Assembly (NCBI GenBank): GCA_963805975.1
Contig: CAWDVR010000001.1
Location: 576,001 to 640,000, forward strand
Source of the DNA: an uncultured Acidobacteriota bacterium
GTDB lineage: Bacteria > Acidobacteriota > Thermoanaerobaculia > Multivoradales > SZUA-115
Direction: 5' to 3'
DNA length: 64,000 nucleotides
A program made the position numbers and the translations under genes. Below, one piece after another: positions 7,604 through 56,754 of this stretch (positions are counted from its first letter, which is position 1; each line of letters starts with the position of its first letter). Below the pieces are notes generated by a model. That model searched no databases. It was not told the origin of the DNA and was given only the letters and a program-made list of their open reading frames with translations.

Positions 7604-8251
7604 ATGAAAAAAGCAGGTTTCGGTCTCTCCGCTCTCGTTGCGGCCCTGGTTGTGCTCCCGGTTCTCGCGGGCACGACGTTGACGTTCACCACCGCGGATC
7701 CGGCGGCGCCGCTGCCCGACAACACCGGCCTTTTCACCGCCTGTCAGAACATCACGGTGGCCGCGATGCCGACCACCATCACCGAGGTGACGGTGCAGAT
7801 CTCTTCGGCGCACTCCTGGGCCGGCGACCTGGTCGCCCGGCTCACGTCCCCGAGCGCCTCGGTTCTGACGCTGGTCAACCGCCCCGGGCGCACCGGCACC
7901 GGCTTCGGCGACAGCAGCAACCTGGCGGCGGCGACGCCGATCACCTACAGCGACACAGCGGCCTCCGGTCTGTCGGCCGAGACCATGGGCAGCCCGGCCG
8001 CTTGCGGTGACACCTCGGTCATCGGCTCCACCCCCGCCTGCCTGGCCGACAACTTCATCCCGGCACCGGCAGTCACTGACATTCCTCCGGGCGTGGGCAC
8101 CAACCTCGCCCAGTTCGACGGCGCGGACCCGAACGGCGTGTGGCAGCTCTGCATCGCCGACGGGGGGCCTGGCGACACCGGCACCCTGAGCTCCTGGAGC
8201 ATCACCGTGACCTCGACGCCGGTGGAGCTGCAGAGCTTCACCATCGAGTAA
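7604..8251 (+). CDS. Secreted Thr/Ser-rich protein with a proprotein-convertase P-domain-like fold and C-terminal PVELQSFTIE motif
   Basis: Sec signal peptide; HSWAGDLVARLTSP, NGVWQLCIAD and GDTGTLSSWSI are typical of P-domains; strong RBS GGAGGA. Confidence 0.8.
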   Translation: MKKAGFGLSALVAALVVLPVLAGTTLTFTTADPAAPLPDNTGLFTACQNITVAAMPTTITEVTVQISSAHSWAGDLVARLTSPSASVLTLVNRPGRTGTGFGDSSNLAAATPITYSDTAASGLSAETMGSPAACGDTSVIGSTPACLADNFIPAPAVTDIPPGVGTNLAQFDGADPNGVWQLCIADGGPGDTGTLSSWSITVTSTPVELQSFTIE

Positions 8252-8308: not shown

Positions 8309-8330
8309 CAGGGAGGTCGCGCGCCGGGCC

Positions 8331-9965: not shown

Positions 9966-9978
9966 CCCGGCTGCAGGG

Positions 9979-14884: not shown

Positions 14885-14955
14885 CTGCCGGCGCCGACGC
14901 TCACGGCTGCCTTCCGCCACCGGGATAGAATCTCGCCTGGTAGCGAGGAGAACGG

Positions 14956-16143: not shown

Positions 16144-16148
16144 CGCCC

Positions 16149-17285: not shown

Positions 17286-17289
<4 letters not shown>
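16149..17289 (+). CDS. Secreted amidohydrolase_2 family metallohydrolase, apparent frameshift near 16205
   Basis: The signal peptide MRRTWPLAFVLLPLVALAQ is in one frame; IDVHNH, LIHTGEP, NAHLGW and VLFGKD are in the next. Confidence 0.82.
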
Positions 17290-18296
<1,007 letters not shown>

Positions 18297-18302
18297 CTTT
18301 CA

Positions 18303-34382: not shown

Positions 34383-34393
34383 GCCGAGCTGCT

Positions 34394-35635: not shown

Positions 35636-35724
35636 GGCCTGGATGGTAGCACGGAGGGCCGCCCCAATCAGGCCTCGCGGCCGGCCGGCGAACCCATCGC
35701 TCCGGCTCGCGTATCATCCTTTGG

Positions 35725-38700
35725 ATGCCTACCACCTCGGCCACGCTCCCCATCCTGATCGACGAGCTGCGCAAAGACCCGCGGCTCGCGGCGAGCGTCG
35801 CCTACAGCGCTTTCCTGCCGCCGTCCGAGGCGCGCTACGGCGTGCTCGACCCGCCGCTGGCGGACCCGCTGGTGGCGGCGCTCGAGTCGACCGGCGCGCG
35901 CAAGCTGTGGAGCCACCAGACGGCGGCTCTCGCAGCCGTGCGGCGCGGCGAGGACGTGCTGGTGACCACCCCCACGGCCTCGGGGAAGTCCCTGGTCTTC
36001 CACCTGCCGGTGCTCGAGGAGGCGCTGGCCGGCGGGCCGGGCCGGGCGCTTTGTCTCTTCCCCTTGAAGGCCCTGGGGCAGGACCAGCGGGCCAAGCTCG
36101 GGGCCCTGGCGCGCGCCGCCGGCCTGGGGCCCGATACCGCCGGCTGCGAGATCTACGACGGCGACACGCCGCGGACCGAGCGCCAGCGCATTCGCCTCGC
36201 GCCACCCCGCATCCTGATCTCGAACCCGGACATGCTCCACGCCGGCCTCCTTGCCCGGCTCGACAACTGGCGCCCTTTCTTCGCCGACCTCCGGTGGATC
36301 GTGCTCGACGAGATCCACACCTACCGCGGCATCTTCGGCAGCCACTTCCACCACGTGCTGGCACGGCTGCTGCGCGCCTGCCGCGCGGAGGGCGCGAGCC
36401 CGAGCCTGATCGCCTCGTCCGCCACCGCCGCGAACGCCGCCGAGTTCGCGGGCCTGCTCTCCGGCCGGAGCTTCCACTGGGTCAGCGAGTCCGGGGCGCC
36501 GCGCGAGGGGCGTCACTTCGTGCTGCTGCGGCCCGAGGCGAGCCCTTACACCACGGCCCTGCGGCTCTTCGTCCACCTGCTCGCGTCCGGGATGAAGACC
36601 ATCGTCTTCACCAAGGCGCGGCGCATCACCGAGCTCCTCTACTCCTGGCTCCGGCGCCAGGAGCCGGAGCTGGCGCGCGGGGTGGCGAGCTACCGCTCCG
36701 GTTTCCTGCCCGAGGAGCGGCGGGGCATCGAGCGGCGGCTCTTCGACGGTGAGCTCAAGGGCGTGATCTCCACCTCGGCGCTCGAGATGGGGATCGACGT
36801 CGGCGGCCTCGACGCCTGCGTGCTGGTGGGCTATCCCGGCAGCATGATGGCCACCTGGCAGCGCGCCGGGCGGGTGGGGCGGGCCGGGCAGGAGTCGCTG
36901 ACGGCGATGGTCGCCATGCCGGATGCTCTCGACCAGTACATCCTCGATCATCCGGCGGAGTTCCTGGAGCGGCCCTGCGAACGGCTGGTGGTCGATCCCG
37001 GCAACGAGCCGGTGGCGCGCGCGCACCTGGTCTGCGCCGCCGCCGAGATGCCGCTCTCGCGCCAGCGCGACGCCGCCTATCTCGAAGCCTTTGCGCCGCT
37101 GGTGGGGGACTTGCTCGCCACGGGAGAGCTCGTGGAGGACGAAGGGCGCGCCGAGATCCGCGCCACGAACCGCCGGCCGCACCGGGACGTGAGCCTGCGC
37201 GGCACGGGCCGCACCGCGCAGATCCTCGAGGCCGGCACCGGGCGCACGATCGGCACCGTGGACGGCATCCGCGTGCTGCACGAGTGCCATCCGGGCGCCG
37301 TCTACCTCCACGCGGGCAAGCAGTTCCTGGTGCGGGACCTGGACCTGGAGGCGCACAAGGTGTGGGCCGAGCGGGTGGAGGTGGACTACTTCACCACGCC
37401 CTTGACCGAAAAAGAGACCGAGATCCGCGAGGTGCTCTCCACCGCGGCCGAGCCTCTGCGGAGCCGCCTCGGCCGCCTGCTGGTGACCGAGCGGGTGGTG
37501 GGCTTCGAAGAGAAGCGCCTGGGCTCGCAGGAGGTGCTGGCGCGGCACCCCCTGGAGCTGCCCGAGTCGCGCTTCGAGACCGTCGGCCTGTGGTGGGAGG
37601 TGCCGCGCGCGCTCGAAGAAGCCCTGCGCCTGGCCGGCGACCACTACCTGGGTGCTCTCCACGCCAGCGAGCACGCGGCGATCTCGCTCTATCCGCTGCT
37701 GGCGCTCTGCGATCGCAGCGACATCGGCGGCATCTCCTACCCGCTCCACCCGCAGGTGGGGAGCGGCGCGGTCTTCGTCTACGACGGCCATCCGGGCGGC
37801 GTGGGCATCGCGGCGCGGGTCTTCACCGAGCTGCCGGCGCTCCTCGCGCGGGTGCTCGAGCTGGTCACGAGCTGCGCCTGCGACGGCGGCTGCCCGTCCT
37901 GCGTGCAGTCTCCCAAGTGCGGCAACGGCAACCGGCCGCTGGACAAGGCCGGCGCGGCGCGGCTGCTGCGGCTGCTCCTGGGCCGCGAGCTGGTGCCGCC
38001 GGAGGCCCTGGCCGCGGCCGAGCGCCCGCGCGCTGTGACCGCTGTCGCCCCTCGCCGGCCCTCGGTGGCGCCGGAGCTGAAGGCGCCCGTGCCGCCCATC
38101 CCGCCGCCGGCACCCATCCTCCTGGAGGCGGCGGTCCAGGTGACGTACCTTCCCGCGGCTCCTGCCGTTTCGCCGGCGCCGTCGAGCGGGGCGGCGGTGG
38201 TCGGGGACGCGGTACGCATCGAGCCGCCGCGCTCCTGGGTCGCCGGAACCTGGGTGCCGGCCCCGGGTGTGAAGCTCAGGAACACGGTGCTCTTCGACGT
38301 CGAGACCCGGCGTGCGGCGTCGGAGGTGGGAGGCTGGGGCAACGCGCACCGCATGGGGGTCGCGATCGGCGTCGCCTGCCTGCTCGAAGAGGGCCGCTTC
38401 GAGGTCTTCGACGAGAGCCGGGTGCGCGAGCTCACGGCGCTGCTCAAGAGCGCGGACCTGGTGGTGGGCTTCAACATCCGCCGGTTCGACTACCTGGTGC
38501 TCTCCGGCTACACGGGCGAGGATCTCAACCGGCTGGTGCCGACCTTCGACCTGCTGGAGGACGTCCACCACCGGCTCGGCCACCGGGCCGGGCTGGGGAA
38601 CTTGGCGCAGGCGACGCTCGGCACGGCCAAGTCAGCGGACGGCCTGCAGAGCCTCGAGTGGGTGAAGCAGGGCCGGCTCGACCTGGTGACCGACTACTGC

Positions 38701-41843: not shown

Positions 41844-42694
41844 GCATGGAACCCAAGCCCTCTCCGAGCGAGGTCCGTGCCGCGGTGTGGAAGGCGGAGA
41901 GCGGAGAGGTCCGCGAGACCGAGGACACCCTCACGGTCGAGGAGCCGCTCGAGATCCGGCTCTCGGCAGGTGGCCGGGAGAAGACCGTCGCCGTCACCAT
42001 GCGCACGCCGGGCGCGGACGAGGAGCTGGCCCTGGGCTTCCTCTACGGCGAAGGCGTGATCCGCGAGCGCCGCGAGGTGCTGCGGGTGGAGACGCTGGCC
42101 GATCCCTGGGCGGCGCCGGGGCAGCCCTCGAACGTGCTGGCCGTGGAGCTGGCGGCGGCCGAGCTGCCCGAGCTCGCGGCGCTCGAGCGCCATTTCTTCG
42201 CTTCGAGCGCCTGCGGCGTGTGCGGCAAGGCGGGGATCGCCAACCTGCGCCAGAAGCTGCCGCGGCTCGAGCAGCAGGGGCCCAGGGTGAGCGCCGCCGT
42301 GCTCTGGTCGCTGCCGGGCCGCCTGCGCGCCGCGCAGGGCGTGTTCGAATCCACGGGTGGGCTCCATGCCGCGGCCCTCTTCACGGCCGAGGGCGAGCTG
42401 GTCGCGGCGCGCGAAGACGTGGGCCGTCACAACGCCACGGACAAGCTCGTGGGCTGGGCGCTCGGCCAGGGCCGGCTGCCGCTCGCGTCTGGGGTCGTCC
42501 TGGTGAGCGGCCGGTCGAGCTTCGAGATCGTGCAGAAGTGCGCCGCCGCCGGCGTGCCCGTGGTGGCCTCGGTCTCCGCCCCCAGCAGCCTCGCCGTGGC
42601 GCTGGCCGAAGAGCTGGGCATCACCCTGGTCGGCTTCCTGCGCGGCGAGCGTTTCAACGTCTACAGCGGCAGGGAGAGGATCGCCTTCGGCTGA
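41840..42694 (+). CDS. fdhD: Formate dehydrogenase accessory sulfurtransferase FdhD
   Basis: VEEPLEI, TMRTPG, SSACGVCGK, TGGLHAA, REDVGRHNA and SAPSSLAV. Confidence 0.93.
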   Translation: MSMEPKPSPSEVRAAVWKAESGEVRETEDTLTVEEPLEIRLSAGGREKTVAVTMRTPGADEELALGFLYGEGVIRERREVLRVETLADPWAAPGQPSNVLAVELAAAELPELAALERHFFASSACGVCGKAGIANLRQKLPRLEQQGPRVSAAVLWSLPGRLRAAQGVFESTGGLHAAALFTAEGELVAAREDVGRHNATDKLVGWALGQGRLPLASGVVLVSGRSSFEIVQKCAAAGVPVVASVSAPSSLAVALAEELGITLVGFLRGERFNVYSGRERIAFG

Positions 42695-42745
42695 GGCGCT
42701 CCCAGGCTTGCGCCCCGGCCCTCTTCGGCGATAGCGTCCCGCCCC

Positions 42746-43486
42746 ATGCTCGAGCTTCTCTCCTCCCCGGACACCTGGATCGCCTTTCTGACCCTGGCGG
42801 CGCTCGAGATCGTTCTCGGCATCGACAACATCGTCTTCATCACCATCCTGGCCGGGAAGCTGCCGAAGGACAAGCAGATCAAGGCGCGGCGCCTGGGCCT
42901 CGCGGTGGCGCTCCTCTCGCGCCTGGGCCTCCTGGCGACGCTCTCCTGGATGGTTGGCCTGACCAAGCCGCTGTTCGCGGTGCTCGGTCACGAGGTGTCG
43001 GGCCGCGATTTGATCCTGCTGGTGGGCGGGCTCTTCCTGCTCGCCAAGGCCACGCTCGAGATCTACGACAAGGTGGAGGCCGCGCACCCCACGGAAGACC
43101 AGATGCGCTCGGCCAAGGCGGTGTCCATGGCCTCGATCCTCGCCCAGATCATGTTCCTCGACATCGTCTTCTCGCTCGACTCGGTGATCACCGCCGTGGG
43201 CATGGTGAACAACCTGTGGATCATGTCCGCCGCGGTGGTGGCGGCGGTGGCGGTGATGATGATCTTCGCCCGCCCGGTGGGCGACTTCGTGGACCGCCAT
43301 CCCTCGATCAAGATCCTCGCCCTCTCGTTCCTGGTGATGATCGGCGTGCTGCTGGTGGCCGAGGGCATGGGCCGCCATGTGGAGAAGGGCTATATCTACT
43401 TCGGCATGGCCTTCTCGCTCCTCATCGAGCTGCTCAACATGCGCTACCGGGCACGCAGCGCACGGCTCGACAAGGCAGCTCACTAG
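42746..43486 (+). CDS. TerC family membrane protein
   Basis: LEIVLGIDNIVFI, DIVFSLDSVITAVG and KGYIYFGMAFS. Confidence 0.93.
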   Translation: MLELLSSPDTWIAFLTLAALEIVLGIDNIVFITILAGKLPKDKQIKARRLGLAVALLSRLGLLATLSWMVGLTKPLFAVLGHEVSGRDLILLVGGLFLLAKATLEIYDKVEAAHPTEDQMRSAKAVSMASILAQIMFLDIVFSLDSVITAVGMVNNLWIMSAAVVAAVAVMMIFARPVGDFVDRHPSIKILALSFLVMIGVLLVAEGMGRHVEKGYIYFGMAFSLLIELLNMRYRARSARLDKAAH

Positions 43487-43511
43487 AACCCGAGACTTTC
43501 AGGCGGCGAGG

Positions 43512-46500
43512 TCAGCCGTCCGTGGCCTGGGCGCGCAGCAGCGCCGCCAACCGTTCCCGCGCCCCGGCCGGCCCGCCGGGCGGCAGATCCTCCAGCACGG
43601 CCAGCGCCTCGGCGGCGATCGCCTGGCGGCGAGCCCGGTCCGGCAGCGTGGCGCGGCTGACCTCGTCCAGCGAGGCGAGGGCGGTGGCCGCGTCGCCCGC
43701 CTGGGCTCCCAGCCGCGCGCGGAGCAGCAGATCGGCGGCCGAGGCACTGGTGGCGAGGAGAGGGTCGAGCAGCCGCACCGCCTCGCTCGCCGCCACCGGC
43801 TCGCCGCCCGCGAGGCGCCAGGCGATGCGGAGGCGCGTGGCGGCGTTGTAGAGCGGGTGCCGGGGCGGGACCGCGGCGAGGGCCCCTTCGAGCGCCGCGA
43901 GCTCACCTTCTGCGCGCCCGTCGGCCCGCGGGTCGGCGAGGCGCCAGCCGGCGAGAACGGCGCTGGCGGCGGCGTCGCTCTCCGCCCAGGCGCGGAGCTC
44001 CGCCGGCCCGCGTTCCTCGGCCATCGCCGGGCGCAGGGCGAGGAGCAAGGCGGAACGCACCTCCTCCGAGGGCTCGGCCACGAGCGCCGGGTCCGCCGCG
44101 CGGCGGCGCCCTCCCGCGAGGTCCAAGAGGAGAAACGCGGCATGCCGCTCGGACGCCGAGGACAGGGCCGCCGCGGCGCGCAGCGCCCGAGCGGGCTGCC
44201 GCTGGCGGATGAGCCAGCGCACCACGTAGGTGCCGTCCGCGCCCGGCGGCAGGCGCCGGATGGAGTCGAAGGGGGCGATCAGGCGGTCGAGACCCGCGCG
44301 GCCGATGGGGTTCGAAAGGGCGCGGGGCGAGCGCGTCTGCAGCAGGTTCCGGCGGTCGCTGTTGAGCTCCGCACCGGCGGCGAGCTCGCGCGAGCCGGAG
44401 CCGTCGAGCACCCGGGCGAGGAGCAGATCCTCGGCGGTCTCGACCCCCACCAGGCGCCACGCCTCGGCCGAGGCCGCGGCGAGAAACGGCGCGCCGCCCC
44501 GCCCGAGCGGCTGGCCGGAGGCCACGAAGAGCACCGCTCCCCACGGGTACGGCTGGTAGACCTCGACGTGGGGAAAGGCCTCCGAGAGCGTCGCGACGAG
44601 GCTCCGGAGCAGGGGCGCGTCCACGAAGTCGAGCCCGATCCACTGCACGAAGACGCCGCCGGCAGCCAGATGCTCGCGGGCGAGCTCGAAGAACTCGCGG
44701 GTGAAGAGGTGCGAGGAGCCGCTGGTCCAGGGATGCGAGGGCTGCGACACGATGGCGTCGAAGCGCTGGCGCGAGAGGGTGAGCACGCTCCGCACGTCGC
44801 CCACGTGCAGCGACAGCCGCGGGTCGGCGAGCGGGTCGCGGCGCCGCTCCCCGGCGAGATGCCGGTTGGCGGCGATCATCTCGGGCTCGAGCTCCACCAC
44901 GTGGACCTGCTCCACGGACGAGGGCAGATCCTCGATCGAGTGGCCGGCCCCGAGCCCCACCACCAGCAATTTGCCGACGTTCTCCCGCACCGCGCCCGGC
45001 AGCAGCGTCAGCCAGCGGGCCACGGCGTAGCGGCCGGGGCGCGCGCCGGGCGGCTGCACCGCCGACTCCGGAAGCCCATTGCCGGTGAGGCGCCATTCGG
45101 CGCCGTCCTCGTGCAGCAGCACGGTGGCGCCCCGGCCCACGCCGTAGAACATCACTTCACCGAAGCCGGAGGTTGCCGAGGCTTCCGCGTCCACGGGCCC
45201 CTCTTCGACCGCCGCCGGTGTCTCGCGAGGTGGCCGGCGGGCGGTGTCCGCCGCCGGGCCGGCGAGCAGGATGGCGAGGGGCGAGGAGCGCAGCACGTTC
45301 CAGGGCGTGGGAGGCCGCACGAAGGCGAGGGCGGCGAGGCCCACGGCCGCCGCCACCAGGGCCCAGTCGAGCCGCGGGCGCTCGGCGAGAGCGACCACCG
45401 CGGCGAGCGCCAGGCTCACCGTCGCCGCCAGCGCCATGGCGCCGGCAAAGCCCAGGCCGGGCAGCAGCCAGAGGCCGGTCGCGACCGTGCCGGCCACGGC
45501 GCCGATCGTGTTCCAGGCTAGCGTCCGGCCGGCCGCGGTCGAGGCCTGGCGGGCGTCCCCGGCGAGCACGCGGACGGCGAGCGGGAAGGTCGCGCCCAGG
45601 CAGAGGGCGCCGGGCAGGATCAGGAGGCCGCCCAGGATCGCCGTCGCCGCCAGCCGGCTGTGCCCCGCGGCGGCGAGATCCGCGCCCCACGTCGGCACCC
45701 GGTCCGCGGCGGCGAAGGCGGCGAGCGACAGGAGCGCCGCGCCGAGCTGCGCCACCGCCAGCCCGAGGCGGGCTCGCTCGCGGCTCTTCGCCAGGCCGGC
45801 GGCGATCGACGCCCCCAGGGCGATGGCCACCAGGAACGCCGCCAGCATGGTGCCCAGGGCGTAGACGCTGCCGCCCACCAAGTGGGTGAGAAGCCGGCTC
45901 CAGACGATCTCGCAGCCCAGCGCCACCGCGCCAGAGAGCGCGGCCACCGCGAGCGGCCAGAACGGCCCGCGCTCACGGGTCGTGGGCGTGGCCCCGGCGC
46001 TCTCCTCGGGCGCCAGGCGGGGCGAGGCGGCCCCGAGCCCTGCCGCGAGGAGAGCTACGCAGACGTTGAGCCCCACGCCGGCCAGCGTGGCGCGGCCGAG
46101 CCCCAGCGTGGGGAGCAGCAGGAAGGCGGTTCCCACGGCCCCCGCCGCCGCGCCGAGCGTGTTGGCGGCGTAGAGCGTGCCCACGCGGGTGCCGATCGCC
46201 TCCTCGCGCCGTACCGCGTGCCGCACCAGGAGCGGCAAGGTGACTCCCATCAGAGCGGTGGGGACGAGGAGGATCAGGAACGAGGAGGCGAGCTGGAACA
46301 GCGTCGAAACGGCGAGCCCACCGTCCGCGCCGTACACCCCGTCGGTGGCCAGCAGCAGCACCTCGAGGCGGCCTGGCCGCGGCGATGAGCGAGGGCACGG
46401 CGAGCGCCAGCAGGCCGATGGCGAGCTCGATCACGGCATAGGCGAGAAGCGGCCGGGTACTACGGCGCGCCCAGCGCGCACCGGCCGCGGCACCCGCCGC

Positions 46501-46656
46501 GAGCCCGGTCATGTACGCGGCGAGGACCGAGACCAGCGCCAGCTCCGAGGCGCCGAACACGAGCGCCAGCTCTTCCATCCACACCGTCTCGAACACCAGC
46601 GCCGAAGTGCCGGAGAGCACGAAGCAGGCGAGGAGGAGCAGGAAGCGGAGGTCCAT
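43512..46656 (-). CDS. Fused multi-TM / spermidine-synthase-like SAM-binding protein, apparent frameshift near 46370
   Basis: N-terminal SGTSALVFETVW..VLAAYMTGLA in one frame, continuing as PTALMGVTLP and LYAANTLG; SAM-fold motifs VGLGAG, VELEP, GDVR and DAIVSQPSHPW; helical C-terminus. Confidence 0.82.
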
Positions 46657-46664
46657 GGCCGGGC

Positions 46665-48482
46665 TCAGGAGCCCGCGGCCAAGCCCAGCCGGGCGACGAC
46701 CGCCTCCCTCCGGAAGCGGAAATCCGCGCCGGCGAGGATCTCGTCGACGACCTGGCGGTAGAGCTGCTGCTGGTGGCGCTCGAGGTAGTCTTTTTTCACC
46801 GGCTCCGCCACCTCCTCGTAGGGCCGTTCGCGAGGCTCCTCGCGCTCGGCGACCTGGATCAGCGAGAGCTGGCGGTTGAACTGGAAGGGGATGGTGTAGC
46901 CCGTGCCCGTCATGTCCAGGAGGTAGAAGCGGACCTTGGGCTCGAACGAGGCGAGCGCGGCGGCAGGGGTCCAGCCCGGCTCGCGCACCGTGCCGCCGAT
47001 CGCGGCGGCCGCCTGCGCGAGGTCGGTCGAGCCGGCCTCGAGCTCCCGCCGCAGCTCTTCGAGCCGCGCCAGCCGGGCCGGCGGGTTGTCGCCGAGCGGC
47101 GCCGTGAGCACCGCCAGCTTCAGGCGCAGGGGAGTCTGGTAGAGGAAGCGGTTGTCCTCGTAGAAGCGCTGCCGCTCGGCCTCGGCGCTCTCGACCTCGA
47201 CCGTCATGCGGCGCTCGATCTCGTAGTCGAGCCAGCGCTCGCCGCCCAGCCGCCGCTCCAGGGCCTCGATCGCCGGCTTCCGACGCTCGTCGAAGCCCTC
47301 GCGCTCCGCCCGGAGGAAGAGCCGCTGGCGCAGCACCTGCGTGTCGTAGAAGCGTTCCATGTCGCGCTCCGGCTCGAGCGAGGGCGGGGCGTTGTGGCGC
47401 CGCTCGCCGAAGAGCTTGCGCAGCTCGGCGACGGTCAGCCGGTAGCCGCCCACCTCGAGCACCACCTCCTCGTCGCCCAGGGCCGGCGCGCGGCGCAGGG
47501 TCTCGGCGTCGAGCACCCGCGCCTCGACCGGCAGCGGCTCGTCGCCGGCCGCCTTGGCGAGCGCCTCACGGAGCTTCTCTTCGCGCAGCTCGCGGGTGAT
47601 GGCCAGCCGCACGTCCGCCAGCGGGAAGGTCTTCTCCGGGATCACGTCGGTGACCCGGAAGAGGAGAACTCCCTGGCGGCCCGAGACCGGGGCGCTGACC
47701 TCGCCGGGCCCGAGAGCGAACACGACCTTCTCGAGCTCCGGGGGCAGCTTGCCGGCGACCACCGCGCCGAGGCGCCCGCCCAGGAGCCGGGTCTCCGACT
47801 GCGAGTGCTGTCGCGCCAGGTCGGCGAAGCTGGCGCCGGCCGCGATCTGCTGCGCGAGCGCCTCGACGAAGGCCACCGTCTTCTCCGGGTGCGCGGCGTC
47901 TTCGTGGCGGCGGAAGATGTGCCAGACCTGGCGCTGGGAGGGTCGGTGGAAGCGCGCGCGGTGGTCCGCGTAGTAGGCCTCGATCTCCGGCTCGGAGACG
48001 GCCAGGTCGGGCCGCAGGTTCTCCTGCAGGTAGAGCTCGATCACGGCGTCGCGATAGACCGTGTCCCGATCCGGGCCCAGGGCATCGAGCGCGCGGTCCA
48101 CGTCCTCGGAGGCCGGCAGCAGGGCGCGCTGGACCACCCAGTCCTCGGCCGCGCGGCGGTAGGCGTCCACCAGCGCCTCGGGGTCCTTGGCCGGCTCGGC
48201 CGCGGTCGAGGCGCGCACCGCCGGCTCGACGGCCGCGAAGGTCACGGCCCCCACCTTGCTGGTTGCCACCACATCCGCGGGCGGCGTCTCCCGGTCCGGA
48301 GACGACCCGCCGCAGGCGGCGGCGAGCAGGGCTGCGACAGCGATGGCCGCCAAGGAACCGCGAGGCCGGAGCTGCCCGGAGATGCAAGGCATCCGGCCCC
48401 GCGGCGACGGAGGCGTAGTTTTCCTACGTCGAGGAGCCGAGGGGCCGGATAACGCAGCAGATTCGGGTAGCTCCGGCCTCAC
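46665..48482 (-). CDS. Parvulin-type peptidyl-prolyl isomerase/foldase (SurA/PrsA-like), probable lipoprotein
   Basis: LAAAC lipobox; EIEAYYADHRARF, WHIF, FADLARQHSQ..GGRLG and GEVSAPV. GTGA overlap with the upstream stop; the true start may be further downstream. Confidence 0.78.
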   Translation of the reverse strand: MRPELPESAALSGPSAPRRRKTTPPSPRGRMPCISGQLRPRGSLAAIAVAALLAAACGGSSPDRETPPADVVATSKVGAVTFAAVEPAVRASTAAEPAKDPEALVDAYRRAAEDWVVQRALLPASEDVDRALDALGPDRDTVYRDAVIELYLQENLRPDLAVSEPEIEAYYADHRARFHRPSQRQVWHIFRRHEDAAHPEKTVAFVEALAQQIAAGASFADLARQHSQSETRLLGGRLGAVVAGKLPPELEKVVFALGPGEVSAPVSGRQGVLLFRVTDVIPEKTFPLADVRLAITRELREEKLREALAKAAGDEPLPVEARVLDAETLRRAPALGDEEVVLEVGGYRLTVAELRKLFGERRHNAPPSLEPERDMERFYDTQVLRQRLFLRAEREGFDERRKPAIEALERRLGGERWLDYEIERRMTVEVESAEAERQRFYEDNRFLYQTPLRLKLAVLTAPLGDNPPARLARLEELRRELEAGSTDLAQAAAAIGGTVREPGWTPAAALASFEPKVRFYLLDMTGTGYTIPFQFNRQLSLIQVAEREEPRERPYEEVAEPVKKDYLERHQQQLYRQVVDEILAGADFRFRREAVVARLGLAAGS

Positions 48483-50608
48483 GGCGGTCTCTCCATCATT
48501 TGGCGTGCCTCTGCCATCACCCGCGGATCACGGCAGCGGGCGGCGAGGGTCGAGTACACGGCCTCGGCTTCACCGCGCTCGCCGGCCGCGAGGTGCAGGG
48601 CCAGCAGCGCGAGGTGGGCCTTCCAGTAGTCGGGCGCGAGGTCGAGCGCGCGCCGGAGCTCGCTTCGTGCTTCCTCCTGCCGCGCGGTCTTGAGCAGCAG
48701 GGTGGCGAGGTTCAGGTGCGCGGAAGGGTCGAGCGGCGTATCGGCCGCCAGGCGCCGCAGATGCACCTCGGCCTCGGCAACACGGCCGGCCTCGGCGAGG
48801 AGAACGGCGAGGCGCTGGCGCGCCGCGTTGTGCTTCGGGTCGGCGGCGAGCGCCGCGGCCAGCTCACCCTCCTCGGCGGCGCGGTCGCCCAGCTCCCCGA
48901 GCATGGCGCCGAGCAGGAAGTGGGTCGGTGCCGAGGCCTGGGCCGCCGCCACTTTCTTTGCCAGGGCGAGCGCCCGCTGGTGATCGCCGTTCGAGAACAG
49001 GACCCGCGCCACCTCCATGTACACGTAGTCGTTCTGCGAGCTGATCGGCCCCGCGGCGGCCACCGCGGCGGCCTCCTCCGCCTGGCCGAGGCCGAGCTGC
49101 GCGGTGGCGAGGAGCGCGCGGTAGAAGGCGTTGCCCGGCTCCTCCTCGACCAGCCGCAGCGCCTGCTCGCGGGCCCCCAGGTAGTCCTGCCGCTGGAGGC
49201 TCTGCTTGCACAGGCTCCAGAGGCTCACGCTGGCGATGTGATCCTGCGGCGGATCGCCGTCGTCGCGGAGCTTCTCCTCGATCTGGATCGGCCCTTCGCC
49301 GCCGGCCGAGATGTAGCCCAGCGCGGCCAGCCGCTCGCGGGTCGCGGCATCGCTGTCCGCCAGCGCCTCGGAGGCCGTGGTGCTGGCGTTCTCGGTGACG
49401 AAGGCCTGCAGGCCGTTCTGCAGCCGCTCGGCCTCGGCGCCGGGTGCCAGGTTGGCCAGCTCCTGCGGGTCCTGGCGGACGTCGAAGAGCTCGCGGCGCG
49501 GGCCGTGGATGTACTTGTGCGGCCCCACGAAGAGCGCGCGGAGCTCCCCCCAGCCGTAGGACAGCCGGGGCGACAGGGTCTCGGCGTAGTAGGGCCGCTG
49601 GTCGGCCGGTGCCTGGGCAGGGTTGGCATCCGCGCGCCCGAGCTCGGCGACCAGCGAGCGCCCCTGCAGGTCCGCGGGCACCGGCAGTCCCAGGATCTCG
49701 AGCAGCGTGGGCATGAGGTCGACGGTGCCGACTCGGGACCGCACCCGCCGCCCACCCTTCTCGCCCGGGATGCGGAGGATGAAGGGCACGTGCAGCGTCG
49801 CGTTGTAGAGCAGCATGGAGTGGGTGTCCTCCTCGTGCTCGCCCCGCCCCTCGCCGTGGTCGGCGAGCATGGCGATCACCGTGCGGTCGTAGACGCCCTG
49901 CCGCTTCAGCTCGTCGAGCACCACGCCCAGGGCCTGGTCGGCATAGGCGATCTCCCCCTGGTAGAGGTCGTGCGGGTAGAGGTCGGAGAAGGGTGGCGGC
50001 GGAACGTGCGGCTGGTGCGGGTCCCAGTAGTGGACCCAGGCGAAGAAGCGCCGGCGGGCGTGGTCGCGCAGCCAGGGCAGGATGGCGTCGTTCACCCGCG
50101 CCGCGGGCCGTTCGTCGAAGAAGATGCCGGGACCCTGGCGCCGCCGGCCGCGTTCGTCCTCGGCCGCCACCGTGATGTGATCGTCGTAGAAGTCGAAGCC
50201 CTGGTCGAGGCCCCAGTCGCGGGTCAACGGGAAGGCGCCGATGGCGGCGCCCGTGGCGTAGCCCTCGGCTTTCAGGATCTCGGCCAGGGTGGTGCGCTCC
50301 GCGGGCAGGCGGAAGCGACCGTTGTCCCGCACGCCGTGCGCCAGCGGGTAGAGGCCGGTGAACATGGTGGAGTGCGACGGCGTGGTGATCGGCACCGGCG
50401 TCATGCAGTTCTCGAACAGGGCACCCTCCGCCGCCAGCCGGTCGAGGTTCGGGGTGCGTGCCGAGGTCTTGCCGTAGCAGCCGAGGAAGTCGGCGCGCGT
50501 GGTGTCGAAGGTCACCAACAGGAGATTGAGCTTCGGCTCCCGCCCGCAGGCCGCGAGGGCGAGGAGGGTGAGGATGCCAGGGCGCCGGCCTGCGCGGTGG
50601 ACTGTCAT
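48479..50608 (-). CDS. Sulfatase-like hydrolase/transferase with C-terminal TPRs, lipoprotein
   Basis: LAAC lipobox; LVTFDTTRAD, PITTPSHSTMFTG, HYWDPH, YQGEIAYAD, ADHGE and LAALGY; TPR tail. Confidence 0.88.
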   Translation of the reverse strand: MTVHRAGRRPGILTLLALAACGREPKLNLLLVTFDTTRADFLGCYGKTSARTPNLDRLAAEGALFENCMTPVPITTPSHSTMFTGLYPLAHGVRDNGRFRLPAERTTLAEILKAEGYATGAAIGAFPLTRDWGLDQGFDFYDDHITVAAEDERGRRRQGPGIFFDERPAARVNDAILPWLRDHARRRFFAWVHYWDPHQPHVPPPPFSDLYPHDLYQGEIAYADQALGVVLDELKRQGVYDRTVIAMLADHGEGRGEHEEDTHSMLLYNATLHVPFILRIPGEKGGRRVRSRVGTVDLMPTLLEILGLPVPADLQGRSLVAELGRADANPAQAPADQRPYYAETLSPRLSYGWGELRALFVGPHKYIHGPRRELFDVRQDPQELANLAPGAEAERLQNGLQAFVTENASTTASEALADSDAATRERLAALGYISAGGEGPIQIEEKLRDDGDPPQDHIASVSLWSLCKQSLQRQDYLGAREQALRLVEEEPGNAFYRALLATAQLGLGQAEEAAAVAAAGPISSQNDYVYMEVARVLFSNGDHQRALALAKKVAAAQASAPTHFLLGAMLGELGDRAAEEGELAAALAADPKHNAARQRLAVLLAEAGRVAEAEVHLRRLAADTPLDPSAHLNLATLLLKTARQEEARSELRRALDLAPDYWKAHLALLALHLAAGERGEAEAVYSTLAARCRDPRVMAEARQMMERPP

Positions 50609-52067
50609 TCACTGGCGCTATCAGGCGGATCGCCTGCTCCTCGAGGATCTGCTGCCGGAGCTTGGCCCCGGCCTCGCGCCGCCGCCGGTCGAGAAGGGAG
50701 GCGCGCACGTAGGCCTTGGCCTCGGCCAGGGACAGCTTGCGCTCGGCTCGCTTCCCCACGAGCTCGAGGATCAGGAGGCTGCGCCCTTCCTGCACCACCG
50801 GGCTGAACCCGCCGGGCTCGATCGCGAGCACGGCGGCGTTGGCGTTCAGGCCCAGAGCCCACACCTCGTCGTCGGAGAGCCAGCCCAGGTCTTCCACCTG
50901 GGCGTGCGGGGCCAGGGCCGCGGCCGCCTTCCCGAGGTCGCCGCCGGCCTCTCGCAGCTCCCGGCCCTGCTCGCGCACCCGGTCGTAGAGCGAAGCGGGG
51001 AGGTCATTGCGGATGGGGACGCGGAGGCGGCGGAGGTGGCGGCTCCCGGGCTCGCTCCAGCCTTCCGGCCGGGCTTCGAAGGCAGCCCGGAGCTCGTCCT
51101 CCGAGGGCTCGCCGATCGAGGGCCGCGTGCTCTCGTTCGCCACCGCCTGGGCCTCGAGCTCCAGGTTCTTCCAGCGCAGCAGGAGCTGGTGGTCCGCCGA
51201 CTTCGTGAGGCCCAGCCGCTCGGCTTCGACGCTCGGTCCGCCCTTGCGCTCGACCTCCTCCCGGAGGGCCTGGAAGCGCTCGTTGCGAAGCTCGGTCGCG
51301 AGATCCTCCCGCGCTCCCTCGAAGCGGGGGGCCACCGGCTCGAGCACCTGCACGCAGCGCAAGATCGCGGCGCCCCGCGGCAGGTCGATCACCGGGCTGA
51401 TCTCACCTGGCTGCAGGGTGGCGACGGCTTTCGCGAGCGGATCGGCCAGCCGGTCGAGCGTGACGAAGCCCATGGCGCCACCCCGGAGCCGGGTCGAGGA
51501 CTCGGACTCGGCCTGTGCGACGGCCGCGAAGTCCGCGCCGGCGGCCAGCCGCGCCCGCACACCTTCGAGCGTCTTGCGTACCTCGCCCTTGGCCACGTCG
51601 TCCGCCCCCGGCGGGTACGCCTTGAAGATGTCCTCGAGGCGCCAGCGGCCGGGCTCGGCGAGGGCCGCCCGGCGTACTTCGAAGAGCCGATGCAGATCGG
51701 CCTCCGTGGGTTCGGCCTGGGTCAGCAGATGGAGGTTCAGGGCGCGTTGGGCGAGCTGCGCTTCGAGCCGGCGGCGCTGGCTCCCGGTTTCCTCACGCAC
51801 CGCCGCCGGCAGAGCCGCGAAGCGCCCGGCGAGGGTCTCGAGGATCACGATCTCCTCGACCTTGCGCCGCAGGCCCAGCCGCGAAGGAGCGCCGCTGTCG
51901 AGCTGCACGAAGCGCGACCAGGATTCGACCTCGGCCGCCGACACTTCGCCCCCGCGGTAGGTGGCCACCACGGTGTCGTCCGTCGGCGGCGCGGCAGAGG
52001 CGGGCCGCGGGACGGCCGGCGAGGCGAGGGTCAGGATCAGGGGGATCAGAGCCGCGGCAAGGGTCAT
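50605..52067 (-). CDS. Second parvulin-type PPIase/foldase; its stop appears lost through an indel near 50610-50630
   Basis: Signal peptide from ATG 52067; FAAVAQAESES..GGAMG, GEISPVI and GGFSPVV. Plausible protein ends at EQAIRL, where the frame runs on out of frame over the sulfatase. Confidence 0.75.
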
Positions 52068-52082
52068 CGAGGCGGGAAGCTT

Positions 52083-52111
52083 AAACGAACAAGGCACCCC
52101 GGAGGGTGCCT
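52083..52111 (-). terminator. 8-bp hairpin with partial U-tract downstream of the second PVEL gene
   Basis: The minus strand reads AGGCACCC-TCCG-GGGTGCCT-TGTTCGTTT. Confidence 0.65.
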
Positions 52112-52155
52112 CGAATCACGAAACGGCCGGTGTGGCCGACCTGCTCTGCTTGGAG

Positions 52156-52926
52156 CTAATCGGCTTCGAAGCTCATCAGCTCGACGGGCAGGTTGTCGCC
52201 GGTCACGCGGAAGATGGAGTTCTGGTTGGTGATCACCGTGCCGGCGCCGGGGACCGTGACCACCATGGTGGGCACGAAGGCGGCCGAGTTGAACGGCACG
52301 CGGATGCCGTGGAAGCCCATGCCGGGGTCGACGCCGCCCATGGTGAGGGCCACGCCGTCGCAGGTGCTGTTCAGGGCCACGCTGCCGGCGCAGGGGTCAT
52401 AGTCCGTATTGCGCAGGCCACCCACGAAGGCGCCGGAGTGCGCTACCACCGGCATGGTGAGGGGGGCCATGGCGGTGAACATGGTCACGTTGCCGGTGTC
52501 GCCGAACGCCAGGTAGGGCAGGCCGGTCAGCACCGTGCGGCGCAGCACCATGAAGGAGCCGGGGTTTTGATCCCAGATCGTCATCACCATCTGGTCACCG
52601 CCGTTGGGGGCGGTGCCGTAGTTGCCGGCGATGCGGAAGCTCGCCGAGGCGATCGAGTGCGGATCCTGGACACCGGCGTCGAACAAGTTGCCCACCGTTC
52701 CGCCATCGGTGCCGCGGCGGGCGAAGGGAACGTTGTTGTCGTAGGTCAGGGTCCCGGGCGCACCTGTCGGCGACAGTGGCGGACCGGCGGGCACGAGTTG
52801 CGCCTGGACAACGGGTACGGGGCTCGGGCCAGTGTGCTTGCGCGGCGCGGCCGTGGCTGCTGCTGCGGCGGCGAGGAGCAGCAGAGTGCTGGTTGCGACC
52901 AAACCCGAACGAGCGTCGACCTTCAT
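52156..52926 (-). CDS. Secreted beta-rich protein with C-terminal PVELMSFEAD motif
   Basis: Signal peptide; Gly/Thr/Asn-rich mature region with one Cys pair; RBS GGAGG/AAGGA. Confidence 0.78.
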   Translation of the reverse strand: MKVDARSGLVATSTLLLLAAAAAATAAPRKHTGPSPVPVVQAQLVPAGPPLSPTGAPGTLTYDNNVPFARRGTDGGTVGNLFDAGVQDPHSIASASFRIAGNYGTAPNGGDQMVMTIWDQNPGSFMVLRRTVLTGLPYLAFGDTGNVTMFTAMAPLTMPVVAHSGAFVGGLRNTDYDPCAGSVALNSTCDGVALTMGGVDPGMGFHGIRVPFNSAAFVPTMVVTVPGAGTVITNQNSIFRVTGDNLPVELMSFEAD

Positions 52927-52965
52927 TCCTTCACCTCCGGCGGCGGGAACTGGATTGAGGCCCTG

Positions 52966-52995
52966 ATGCTACTCGGCTGCCGGCTGCCGCGTCAA
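52966..52995 (-). promoter_or_regulatory. Candidate sigma-70 promoter for the second PVEL operon
   Basis: The minus strand reads TTGACG-N18-TAGCAT with an upstream A-tract (AAAAATAA). Confidence 0.55.
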
Positions 52996-53097
52996 GATCA
53001 GTAGGGCGTTATTTTTCAGTTCGAGCATGTTCCGGCGTCCCCTGCGCAAGCGCTTACAGTCGCCGGGCCGGTCGCCAGGTAGACTCGGCGCCCGACG

Positions 53098-53949
53098 ATG
53101 ACCGAGCCCGTTCACGCGGCGATCAGGACGGCCGACGGCCATGGCCTCGCCGCGCGCTTCTTCGCGCCTTCGGGGCCGCCTCGCGGAGCGGTCCTCGTGG
53201 TACCGGCGATGGGCGTGACCCAGAGGTACTACGCGGCCTTCGCCTCCTGGCTGGCGGAGCAGGGCTTTCTGGCCTCGACCTTCGACTATCGCGGCGTGGG
53301 CCTGTCGCGCGCCGAAAAACTGCGAGGGTTTGCCGCCGACATCTTCGACTGGGCGCGGCTCGACTGCCCGGCGATGATCGACGCCCTGTCCGCCCGCGCT
53401 CCCGGCGTGCCGCTCTACTGGGTCGGCCACAGCCTGGGAGGTCAGATCTTCCCCTTCGTGCCCAACCATGATCGGGCGGTGAAGCTGGTGACCGTCGCCA
53501 CCGGCAGCGGCTATTGGCGCGAGAACGCGCCGCGCCTGCGCCGCACGGCCTGGTGGCTGTGGTACGTCGTCGTCCCGGTCTCGCTGCGCCTCTGCGGGTA
53601 TTTCCCGGGGCGGAGGCTGCGCAAGGTGGGGGACCTGCCCCGCGGCGTGATGGAGCAGTGGCGGCGCTGGTGCCTCGATCCGGAGTACGCGGTGGGCGTC
53701 GAGCCGGGCGCCCGCGACCTCTACGCCGCGGTCCGCACCCCGATCGTCTCCCTCTCGTTCACCGACGACGAGTTCATGTCCGCCCAGAACACCGAGTCGA
53801 TCCACGGCTACTTCTCGCAAGCGCCGCGCACCATGAAACGCATCGCCCCGGCCGACGCCGGAGTCGCCCGCATCGGCCACTTCGGCTTCTTCCGGCCGGA
53901 GCCCGGGGCCTCGTTGTGGGGTTCCGTCCTGCTGCCGGAGCTGAAGTAG
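53098..53949 (+). CDS. Alpha/beta-fold hydrolase
   Basis: PAMGVTQRYY, FDYRGVG, GHSLGG nucleophile elbow, DDE and GHFGFF. Confidence 0.9.
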   Translation: MTEPVHAAIRTADGHGLAARFFAPSGPPRGAVLVVPAMGVTQRYYAAFASWLAEQGFLASTFDYRGVGLSRAEKLRGFAADIFDWARLDCPAMIDALSARAPGVPLYWVGHSLGGQIFPFVPNHDRAVKLVTVATGSGYWRENAPRLRRTAWWLWYVVVPVSLRLCGYFPGRRLRKVGDLPRGVMEQWRRWCLDPEYAVGVEPGARDLYAAVRTPIVSLSFTDDEFMSAQNTESIHGYFSQAPRTMKRIAPADAGVARIGHFGFFRPEPGASLWGSVLLPELK

Positions 53950-53952
53950 GGC

Positions 53953-56754
53953 CTAGTCGGCGCGCAGGGTCTCGACCGGGTCCACCGCCGCGGCGCGTCG
54001 GGCCGGCCGGAAGCCCGCCAGCGTACCCACCGCCAGCACGATCCCGAGCACCGCGAGATAGGCGGCAGGATCGCGGGCGCTGACGCCGTAGAGCAGGCTG
54101 TCGAGCAGCCGGGCGGCGAACCAGGAGACGAGCGTGCCCAGCACGGCGCCGGTGGCGATCAGGCCGAGGCCGTTGCCGAGCACGTGCGCCAGCACCTGTC
54201 CGGGCCGCGCGCCGAGCGCCATGCGAATGCCGATCTCGCGCCGCCGCTGCGCCACGGCGTAGGAGATGACGCTGTACACCCCGGCCGCGGCCAGCAGGAT
54301 CGACACCGCGGTGAAGACCCACAGCAGCCAGGAGTAGGCGAGCCGGAACCACAGCGAGCGGTCCATCCTCTCGGCGAGAGTGCGCACGTCCCCCATCGGC
54401 AGCTCGGGATCGAGCTTCGCCAGCACCTGGCGCGCCGGCGCCACGAGCTGGAGAGGGTCGCGCGAGGTGCGCAGCACGAATCCCAGTGACGGGTAGCCGC
54501 GCTGGCGGTAGGGCACGTGGAGGCTGGGCCTCATCGGCCGGTCGAGGCCGTAGTGCTTGACGTCGCGGGTGATGCCGACCACCGGGATGAAGTCCTCGCC
54601 GGTCGCGCCGTAGCGCAGCCGCTTGCCGAGGGCGCCGCCTTCCGGCCAGAATTGCCGGACGAAGCTCTCGTTGACGATCGCCACCCGGGTGGCGTCGTCG
54701 TGGCCGTCCAGCTCGCTGAAGGTCCGCCCCTCGAGCAGAGTCACCCCCAGCGTCTCGAGGTATCCGGGTGTGGCCGCGACCTCGAGCACCACCGGGTTGG
54801 CCTCGCCCGGCGCCGGCGTCCAGCCGCCCTCGACCACGGCGAACCAGCCGTTGTGCTCACCCACCGGCAGCTTCGACGCCGCGCCGGCAGACTCGACGCC
54901 GGGCAGAGCCCGAAGCTCGGCGAGGAGGCGGTCGTAGAAGGCGATTCGCGCCGCCTCGTCGGCGTACCTCGACGCCGGCGGCCAGACCCGGAACGTCAGG
55001 GCTCCCTCGGGCTCGAAGCCCGGATCGCCCGCCTGCACGTTGCGCAACGACGCCACCAGCACCGAGGACGCGACCAGCAGGAGCACGGTCAGCGCCACCT
55101 CGCCGACGATCAGCGCCGCCAGCGTGTTGCGGTGGCCGCGGGACCACCCGGCGCGGCCTCCCTCCTGCAGGCACTCGCGGGCATCCACCCGCGCCGCCGA
55201 GAGCGCCGGCACCAGGCCGAAGAGGGCGACCGCCGAGCCGGTGACCGCGGCGCAGAAGAGCGCCGCCCGGAGATCGAGGGGGAAGCCGATCCAGGCGGGC
55301 AGCAGGTCGGGGACCAGGCGCAGCAGGCCCTTCAGAGCAAGGCTGCCGAGCCCCACCCCGAGCCCGGCGCCAATCGCCGCCAGGAGCAGGCACTCGATCA
55401 GGAGCTGGCGGACGATCGCGCCCCGCGCCGCGCCCATCGCGGTGCGAATGGCGATCTCCCGGGCGCGCGAGGAGGCGCGCACCATCATCAGCCCGGCGAC
55501 ATTGGCGCAGGCGATCAGCAGCAGGATGGCGACGCCGCCGAGCAGCAGGTAGGTCGCGGTGCGGTAGCTGCCCAACAGGCGTTCGCGCAGCGGCGTCACG
55601 ATGGGCGAGGTGACGACGTCCTGCCGGCCCATGGCCGCGGCGTGGTTGCGGTGGACTCGCCCGAGGTCCGCCGTCGCCTGCTCGATCGACACACCGGGCT
55701 TCAGGCGCCCGATGCCGCTCAGGTTGTAGCTGTCCCCGACCGTCGGGTCGGCCGCGAGCGGCACCCACACCTCGGCCCTCTGCGGATAGACGGCCTCGCG
55801 CGGCAGCACGCCGACCACGGTGTAGGCCTCGCCGTCGATCTTCAGGGCGCGGCCCACGACGCCGGGATCGCCCTGGAACAGCCGGTGCCAGAGGGCGTGG
55901 CCGAGCATCGCGACCCGCGGGCCGTTCGGCCGGTCCTCCTCGGGCAGGAAGCCCCGTCCGACGACGGGGCTCAGCTTCAGCACCTCGAGCATGCGATGCG
56001 TGACCTGCGCCCCTCGCACCCGCAGCGTGCCGCCGTCGTCGGCCGTCCCCCCGGCTGGAGCCCCCTCCGCTGGTGTCAAATTGACGCCGTTGGCGATCGA
56101 GAAGGCCATGGCCTCGAACGAGGTGCTGCCGGCCTCCCAGGCGAGGTAGTCCGCGTTCGAGACGCTGGTGAACTCCAGGTTCCAGCGCGGGGCGGTCTCG
56201 TCCAGGTCCACCAGGCGGTCCAGCCCGGGGAAGGGCCAGGGTCGCAGGAAAAGGCCGTTGTAGATGCTGAACACGGCCGCGGTGCCGCCGATCCCCAGCG
56301 CGAGCATGGTGATCACCATGGCGCTGAAGGCCGGTTTCAGGCGCAGGCCACGGAAAGCCGACCTGAGGTCGTGGCCGAACGAAGCGAAGCCGAGCTTGCC
56401 GAGCATCGTCGATCTCCTCGCGACAGGTCGTAGCCCGAGCACGGGCGGCCGCGGCGAACGGAAGGTGCGCAGCGCACCGAGCGCCTGCGGGAAGCCGGTG
56501 CCCTCGTCCAGCTCGGCGAGCAACTGCCGGCGGGCCTCTCCCTCGGAGCGCCCCTGCGCCAGGAGGTCGGCGAGCTGGCTCTCGAGGTGCTGGGCCAGCT
56601 CGTCCACCACCTCGGCCTCGCGGGCCGCATCGAGCCCGGCGCGCGCCACCAGCTCCCGGACCGCCGCCCTCCAATCGGAACCGGCTCTCCAGTCAGACCC
56701 CGCTTTCCAATCAGACCCCGCTTTCCAATTAGACCCCGCTTTCCAATTAGACAT
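53953..56754 (-). CDS. ADOP-family duplicated MacB/FtsX-type ABC permease
   Basis: EVVDELAQHL prefix, LALGIGGTAAVFS, LLIACANVAGL, REIAIRTAMGA and RRREIGIRMALGA..DPVETLR. Confidence 0.92.
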   Translation of the reverse strand: MSNWKAGSNWKAGSDWKAGSDWRAGSDWRAAVRELVARAGLDAAREAEVVDELAQHLESQLADLLAQGRSEGEARRQLLAELDEGTGFPQALGALRTFRSPRPPVLGLRPVARRSTMLGKLGFASFGHDLRSAFRGLRLKPAFSAMVITMLALGIGGTAAVFSIYNGLFLRPWPFPGLDRLVDLDETAPRWNLEFTSVSNADYLAWEAGSTSFEAMAFSIANGVNLTPAEGAPAGGTADDGGTLRVRGAQVTHRMLEVLKLSPVVGRGFLPEEDRPNGPRVAMLGHALWHRLFQGDPGVVGRALKIDGEAYTVVGVLPREAVYPQRAEVWVPLAADPTVGDSYNLSGIGRLKPGVSIEQATADLGRVHRNHAAAMGRQDVVTSPIVTPLRERLLGSYRTATYLLLGGVAILLLIACANVAGLMMVRASSRAREIAIRTAMGAARGAIVRQLLIECLLLAAIGAGLGVGLGSLALKGLLRLVPDLLPAWIGFPLDLRAALFCAAVTGSAVALFGLVPALSAARVDARECLQEGGRAGWSRGHRNTLAALIVGEVALTVLLLVASSVLVASLRNVQAGDPGFEPEGALTFRVWPPASRYADEAARIAFYDRLLAELRALPGVESAGAASKLPVGEHNGWFAVVEGGWTPAPGEANPVVLEVAATPGYLETLGVTLLEGRTFSELDGHDDATRVAIVNESFVRQFWPEGGALGKRLRYGATGEDFIPVVGITRDVKHYGLDRPMRPSLHVPYRQRGYPSLGFVLRTSRDPLQLVAPARQVLAKLDPELPMGDVRTLAERMDRSLWFRLAYSWLLWVFTAVSILLAAAGVYSVISYAVAQRRREIGIRMALGARPGQVLAHVLGNGLGLIATGAVLGTLVSWFAARLLDSLLYGVSARDPAAYLAVLGIVLAVGTLAGFRPARRAAAVDPVETLRAD
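56661..56752 (-). repeat. In-frame 18-bp tandem repeat (about 5 units) at the permease 5' end
   Basis: On the plus strand AGACCCCGCTTTCCAATY occurs three times (56695-56748), plus two degenerate units. It encodes SNWKAG SNWKAG SDWKAG SDWRAG SDWRAA. Confidence 0.9.

Follow-up and report, generated by a model that had tools for sequence, protein, structure and literature searches.

A block of five minus-strand genes from an uncultured Acidobacteriota bacterium (Thermoanaerobaculia; Multivoradales; SZUA-115) encodes a secreted jelly-roll protein with a C-terminal PVEL tail (here called the cargo), a tandem-parvulin protein (PPI1), a sulfatase-fold TPR lipoprotein (sulfatase-TPR), a second tandem-parvulin protein (PPI2) and a membrane protein with a spermidine-synthase-like S-adenosylmethionine (SAM) domain (the SAM enzyme). 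The block lies in a stretch of 64,000 nucleotides, termed the window, which comprises positions 576,001–640,000 of contig CAWDVR010000001.1 (C1) of assembly GCA_963805975.1 (5.36 Mb, six contigs, 96% complete) and is numbered from its first letter. It is considered reasonably probable that the block combines the cargo with likely helpers for its folding and tailoring, and that the tail likely sorts the cargo to the surface via an FN3 adaptor which lacks one strand and whose gene, outside the window, lies next to that of a PorU-like C25 peptidase. The block probably serves as the maturation kit of an undescribed route by which proteins are sorted to the cell surface, and the system is filed as a variant of C-terminal signal/sortase systems, not as a type IX secretion system (T9SS).

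Conservation of the block

The conserved core consists of the tailed cargo, one or more tandem-parvulin proteins and the sulfatase-fold TPR lipoprotein, with the SAM enzyme as an optional member. Of 17 genome loci followed downstream of the cargo, 15 continued into PPI1, 14 as far as sulfatase-TPR and 10 as far as PPI2, the remainder stopping at contig edges; the 15 include locus L015, in which the cargo open reading frame (ORF) ends before the tail and the last tail residues lie in another frame. The SAM enzyme came next in 2 of the 8 orthologous loci with sequence past PPI2. PPI2 matched 80 places outside the window, and the 60 stretches compared from the PPI2 side represent the best 61 of them. 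Sulfatase-TPR adjoined PPI2 in 54 of the stretches, a tail was present within 3 kb in 44 (43 on the same strand), an ASPIC/UnbV gene in 21 and the SAM enzyme in 8, and gene order was variable. Excluding four stretches already found through the cargo, a PVEL tail lay within 3 kb in 26 of the 30 PPI2 loci having 3 kb of sequence on both sides. An earlier note, made from the letters of this DNA, had linked the PVEL gene to the foldases and sulfatase-TPR and proposed a modular system; this neighborhood check bears out the link, the block seldom occurring without a tailed gene, and the modular proposal holds as well.

After removal of the tail, 43 of 49 tailed ORFs from the PPI2 stretches joined the cargo family by jackhmmer (19 by direct profile), which indicates that the kit serves mainly one cargo family. 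Among 401 genomes of the class, all 40 with PPI2 at E ≤ 1e-38 matched the tail pattern, and four weak partial PPI2 matches did not.

The PVEL tail, the FN3 adaptor and the C25 peptidase

Two PVEL tails were found in the genome, both inside the window. The PVEL motif, which we took to be the start of a domain in T9SS cargo, served as a lead for searching the genome for the remainder of that domain. Two small exported FN3 proteins, one of them at C1:567969-568370, were located some 3-8 kb ahead of the window, flanking a stand-alone C25 peptidase (C1:567969-571119 for the group) with GT-C (glycosyltransferase) genes on both sides; the order over C1:566410-572963 is GT-C, FN3, C25, FN3 lipoprotein, GT-C/TPR, and a nitrilase-Ku-LigD block lies between these genes and the other tailed locus of the window (locus A). 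The strand before the conserved NTLRW strand was absent in all 120 listed of 287 FN3 homologues. The adaptor was modeled as an FN3 sandwich (Z 9.7, root mean square deviation [rmsd] 2.4, 91 aligned to 2ic2; the match list consisted mostly of FN3 entries) that begins at strand B, with solved single FN3 domains aligning from residue 18-19; the full set of seven strands, strand A included, is thus not seen in the adaptor. Fold matches of adaptor and cargo were obtained from VIA-align, and Foldseek returned no match for either at E ≤ 0.001.

A complete FN3-like domain opening with a PVEL-like strand was present in 8 longer proteins, and the adaptor covered positions 16-103 of a profile of such complete domains (E 9e-31). 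The tail is 11 residues long, and 60 of 71 tails stop three residues past the Phe position, where strand A ends. By homology and by the modeled fold, the PVEL tail is predicted to be the first strand missing from the adaptor. Among 40 longer adaptor matches, 18 clusters are fusions of the adaptor with C25, in which the protease itself carries the tail reader. Fusions with tandem parvulins account for 6 and tie the foldases of the block to the tail reader; two FN3-parvulin fusions lie inside cargo-PPI-sulfatase loci. Of the two FN3 genes, one encodes a lipoprotein-type signal, as do many homologues, and Pseudomonadota was the commonest taxon of adaptor clusters in the Protein Atlas.

Strand-less FN3 was also observed fused to PF03576, PF00753 and PF01401 proteins (P0243, P0246, P0248), as real fusions or read-through artefacts, and in Wzm/Wzt-like polysaccharide clusters (L142, L153, L176, L179, L182) with C25 absent in range, four of these five loci matching the GT-C query.

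The C25 peptidase matched Pfam C25 (E 2e-79), and its His, Cys and an Arg 34 residues past the Cys were kept in 30 of 30 sequences. In the 401 class genomes, C25 scores fall into two groups, distant fused forms and a close clade of 62 genomes (E ≤ 1e-60). The tail pattern was matched in 61 of the 62 close-clade genomes, and the clade was present in 53 of the 54 genomes with three or more tail matches; genome G218 enters these tallies as one negative row only. The 22 genomes with the pattern alone comprised 19 with single and 2 with double matches, the level of a reversed-pattern control, and G213. Six genera hold both states, and C25 and tail agree there apart from single background-level matches. 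The adaptor lay within 1.5 kb of the C25 gene in 26 of 30 C25 loci, and C25 was present in 30 of the 39 longer metagenome adaptor loci.

A second C25 protein (1612 aa, C2:600783-605621), adjoining radical-SAM genes, carries a passenger, a complete FN3 domain and the peptidase in one chain, and its domain order looks like an unsplit form of the system. About 40 ORFs over all six contigs end in a second tail, IFxDGFESGxxxxW-like, which may act as a further split-domain signal, since it resembles the strand that opens MAM/cleaved-adhesin jelly rolls. The idea that gingipain adhesin-binding motifs have a strand-donated FN3 fold was dropped, the pertinent passage of PMC5266723 not supporting it.

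Genes of the block and their products

The five genes, the promoter and the hairpin of the earlier note were all recovered in the claimed order from ORFs, Pfam/NCBIfam matches and a motif scan (Table 1). The block is flanked by a divergent hydrolase gene at 53098 and a convergent TerC gene with its end at 43486, and the named relatives are from Thermoanaerobaculia and other Acidobacteriota metagenome-assembled genomes. Pfam/NCBIfam matches were Rotamase in PPI1 and PPI2, Sulfatase and TPR in sulfatase-TPR, and a spermidine-synthase domain/MFS_SpdSyn-like match in the SAM enzyme. Locus A (window 5635-13433) encodes a membrane-TPR protein (TMTC-like by eye), the tailed P-domain protein, a TPR protein, an ASPIC/UnbV protein and a second membrane-TPR protein.

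Table 1. Positions in the window of the features of the block and of the second tailed gene.
Feature	Positions	Strand	Basis
Sigma-70-like promoter, TTGACG-18-TAGCAT	52966..52995	-	sequence scan and relatives
Cargo (256 aa), comprising a signal peptide, a short pro-region, a lectin-like jelly roll that holds two invariant Cys, and the PVEL tail at the C-terminus	52156..52926	-	
PVEL tail, predicted first strand of an FN3-like domain, stop codon directly after	52156..52191	-	homology
GC-rich hairpin and T-rich run between cargo and helper genes, putative terminator or attenuator	52090..52113	-	
PPI1, exported tandem-parvulin protein, ~485 aa; frameshift at last codons in present assembly	50605..52067	-	
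Sulfatase-fold and TPR lipoprotein, 709 aa, Thr at nucleophile position (TxPSH)	48479..50608	-	
PPI2, tandem-parvulin lipoprotein, ~575 aa (start uncertain)	46665..48392	-	
SAM enzyme (optional), with a membrane domain, a spermidine-synthase-like SAM domain and a helical tail; gene broken near 46370	43512..46656	-	
P-domain protein of locus A, the one further protein in the genome with a PVEL tail	7604..8251	+	

Cargo searches against Pfam/NCBIfam gave no match, and the Protein Atlas returned unnamed clusters only, among them a single lead to DUF7451 (53% of members). With 118 representatives at 50% identity, counted with a profile that included the tail, the family is moderately large. A search gave 134 homologues, and in an alignment the two Cys of the jelly roll are invariant. 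The model (predicted local distance difference test score 87) consists of a signal helix, a short pro-strand, the jelly roll and an unfolded tail. Its best fold match was a phage tail-tip domain (Z 10.5, rmsd 3.9, 162 aligned), followed by the Cwp84 lectin-like domain (Z 10.3, rmsd 3.5, 148 aligned) and carbohydrate-binding modules; this shared fold does not show sugar binding by the cargo. The matches end near residue 245 with the tail outside, and the modeled jelly roll appears complete without it. Cargo codon use was at the 86th percentile versus 5-45 for the helper genes, a weak signal.

Active parvulins carry a catalytic tetrad of two His and Asp/Cys. In the first parvulin domains, which were the domains checked, the C-terminal catalytic His is replaced in both PPI1 and PPI2, and the Asp also in PPI2. 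The best solved matches of these peptidyl-prolyl isomerase-type proteins (PPIases) were PrsA and SurA, and the lost residues suggest SurA/PrsA-like chaperones, not isomerases. The sulfatase fold was supported at E 6e-47, a lipobox was found in 11 of 13 sulfatase-TPR proteins, and of 68 matches to the nucleophile motif, 66 read T-x-P-[SA]-H and the other 2 were spurious; the C/S-x-P-x-R of formylglycine sulfatases was not found. LtaS, EptA and NPP are Thr-nucleophile enzymes, and by analogy the protein more likely moves phospho-groups than hydrolyzes sulfates.

The SAM enzyme scored 113 bits against the fused MFS/spermidine synthase family NF037959 (cut-off 40). The catalytic Asp of the aminopropyltransferase DxxDP loop is absent from its SAM domain, SQPSHP aligning to DGSDP. 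In hand-picked sets of 64 tail-system genomes and 78 others, a close subfamily with the SQPSHPW motif (E ≤ 1e-90) was found in 14 and 0, respectively, and the wider family in 28 and 18.

The promoter was the single promoter-like site in 42500-54000 and matched 9 of 12 positions (shuffles give 0.2). In 9 of 14 relatives, a comparable promoter was found in the 150 bases ahead of the cargo gene, versus 0.34 (max 3) in shuffles, some cargo gene starts being approximate. The hairpin was likewise the single terminator-like hairpin in 42500-54000; shuffles give 2.5, which by itself is not above chance. A strong hairpin with a T-run, as judged by eye, followed the cargo in 5 of 11 folded relatives. 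With this hairpin between the first two genes, co-transcription would need read-through, and far more cargo than helper protein could be made.

Two details of the gene junctions had been overlooked in the earlier note. PPI1 has no in-frame stop, and its frame runs on across the sulfatase gene to give an ORF of 1077 aa; its same-genus orthologue (locus L001, 485 aa) stops at the sulfatase start, and none of the relatives' contigs compared spans the PPI1 end. The SAM-enzyme gene starts at 46656 and is broken near 46370, where one base is absent in close relatives' contigs from two studies; the L001 orthologue is one 1040-aa ORF. Both defects are probably assembly errors, since other genes of the genome are split as well. 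In one relative, 1221 additional bases lie ahead of the last (SAM-enzyme) gene. More frameshifted or stop-less genes were seen in the window at ~1800-4300, 14760-18300 and 33351-35753 (short-chain dehydrogenase-like, FAD-oxidoreductase-like and others, named by eye), a pattern consistent with indel errors in the assembly.

Proposed mechanism, alternatives and known systems

In the proposed mechanism, the cargo, with a signal peptide seen in its sequence, would be exported by Sec, then held and folded by PPI1 (soluble) and PPI2 (lipoprotein). Its tail is predicted to dock as strand A into the FN3 adaptor, and C25 may cut ahead of the tail and join the cargo to an amine-bearing surface anchor in the manner of PorU. 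In the weakest step, the Thr-nucleophile sulfatase-fold lipoprotein would transfer a phospho-group to cargo or anchor, and in some lineages the SAM enzyme would add a further group.

Several observations weigh against this mechanism or narrow it. Both tails cover profile positions 5-16 and are too short for a significant score, and the profile was built from hand-picked proteins. No cleavage site stands out, since the residues ahead of the tail are variable. The E-value cuts used for the co-occurrence counts were set after the score gaps were seen, kin are not independent, and G061 has C25 without tails, as G213 has 14 tail matches without a C25 match. Four informative PPIase loci have no near tail (L046, L068, L069 and L090, the last with a tail at 4.5 kb), and five more TxPSH sulfatase-TPR-like paralogues of the genome have no tailed neighbor. 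PPI2 was not matched in 23 of the 62 C25 genomes, with only 3 candidates scored per genome, which indicates that the kit is not required for sorting in general. Finally, C25 is missing from the vicinity of 9 of the 39 longer metagenome FN3 loci. Five of the nine sit in polysaccharide-type clusters, and four of these five match the GT-C next to the C25 operon of the present genome; an adaptor without C25 in those five loci suggests that glycosylation may be an older or parallel role.

The tail might instead be a non-covalent anchor, with the cargo hooked in an FN3 lipoprotein and C25 performing some other job, e.g. removal of the pro-region after Arg. The lipoprotein-type signals on FN3 proteins would suit such an anchor, as would an Arg after the signal peptide that is at least 90% conserved in cargo homologues and the Arg that 36 of 115 homologues have 7 residues ahead of the domain; however, the cargo of the window has no Arg at the latter position, such a pro-region is missing from the P-domain cargo of locus A, and the FN3-C25 fusions put the tail reader on a protease, and we regard this explanation as unlikely. 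Recruitment of the cargo to a glycosylation machine, with FN3 as an adaptor of GT-C and the sulfatase-fold and SAM enzymes decorating the glycan, is judged somewhat more doubtful still. It draws on the GT-C genes that flank the FN3-C25 operon, on a 37% identical GT-C directly after FN3 in a C25-less locus among Wzm/Wzt-like genes and on GT-C matches in 20 of 80 metagenome FN3 loci, but the near-perfect tracking of the tail by C25 in Thermoanaerobaculia-class genomes is left aside by it. It can be compatible with sorting by C25 if the glycan serves as the anchor.

The earlier note had proposed a surface polymer; in this reading the cargo would polymerize into a surface filament, the tail being passed to the next subunit as in type V or chaperone-usher pili. 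A conserved promoter, the hairpin after the gene, codon use (weakly), dedicated chaperones and the modeled N-terminal pro-strand would fit an abundant structural protein. The surface polymer is nevertheless unsupported and, in this form, improbable: the fold matches cover the domain without the tail, and the same tail occurs on unrelated proteins and matches the strand-less FN3 beside C25. A filament is neither shown nor needed, and a polymer through other contacts is possible. That the block is a chance mosaic of common exported-protein genes can be nearly dismissed. The sulfatase-TPR, parvulin and MFS/spermidine-synthase families are widespread, but the gene order is conserved from both the cargo and the PPIase sides, only two tails occur in the whole genome and FN3-PPIase fusions exist; the synteny counts refute a mosaic unless they reflect few inherited events.

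Sorting through the FN3 adaptor and C25 would resemble the T9SS and donor-strand systems. Donor-strand complementation, by which the strand of one chain completes the Ig-like sandwich of another, is known from chaperone-usher and type V pili and would operate here as well. In the present system, in contrast, the strand would be taken up by a small adaptor, which is found fused to C25 and PPIases too, instead of by the next pilin, and the tail occurs on unrelated folds. With the T9SS C-terminal domain (CTD) and PorU (PG0026, C25) the system shares a C-terminal signal without a membrane helix on unrelated secreted proteins, and a His/Cys dyad with a downstream Arg. P. gingivalis PorU removes the CTD by cleavage and attaches the cargo to an amine; a conserved Arg stands 32 residues past its Cys (PMC4560394). 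The likeness of the peptidase is weak, at 195 bits against NF033707 (cut-off 420) and 132 against PorU2 (cut-off 450), and full-length PorU was not found. A further link is the complete FN3-like domain directly before T9SS tails in 4 proteins. The T9SS signal is a folded domain, whereas the PVEL signal has 11 residues and would be one strand of a domain with the remainder in a separate gene, and here a dedicated chaperone and tailoring kit accompanies one cargo family. PorV was not detected in the genome (best 28.8 bits versus cut-off 90; the positive control was detected), and no match was obtained for the SprA translocon or TIGR04183 tails, for which the positive controls went undetected as well. 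Two secretins are present.

The helpers likewise depart from their known counterparts. SurA/PrsA/EpsD-type parvulins share Rotamase domains and export or lipid anchoring, but the proteins here have two parvulin domains each, with catalytic residues partly lost, stand beside one client family and are sometimes fused to the tail reader. Formylglycine sulfatases and LtaS/EptA/NPP have the sulfatase fold in common, whereas the lipoprotein here has TxPSH, not C/SxPxR, and C-terminal TPRs. The SAM enzyme shares membrane and SAM domains with NF037959, but belongs to the SQPSHPW subfamily and lacks the catalytic Asp.

No description was found in the literature on Thermoanaerobaculia C-terminal secretion signals, a PVEL sorting signal or Thermoanaerobaculia peptidase C25, the scope being papers open without subscription and their main texts. 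A wider interpretation is offered tentatively, that PVEL is a natural split-domain tag: an 11-residue strand whose interchangeable strand-less FN3 "readers" on the sortase, chaperones and glycosyltransferase loci would hand cargo down a T9SS-independent periplasmic line, the present locus being the version of it that serves a lectin-like surface protein, abundant and chemically decorated. As the tail is an 11-residue peptide and the reader a 90-residue domain, their binding lends itself to direct assay in vitro, and together they could serve as a protein tag. If true, the finding would name the signal, reader, peptidase and client-specific maturation kit of a C-terminal sorting route outside Bacteroidota, in which the signal is read by completing a split domain; the present locus contributes the client-specific kit and the FN3-PPIase fusions. 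It would also give a role to the stand-alone C25 clade and to the sulfatase-TPR, tandem-parvulin and MFS/spermidine-synthase genes that are abundant and unnamed in Acidobacteriota.

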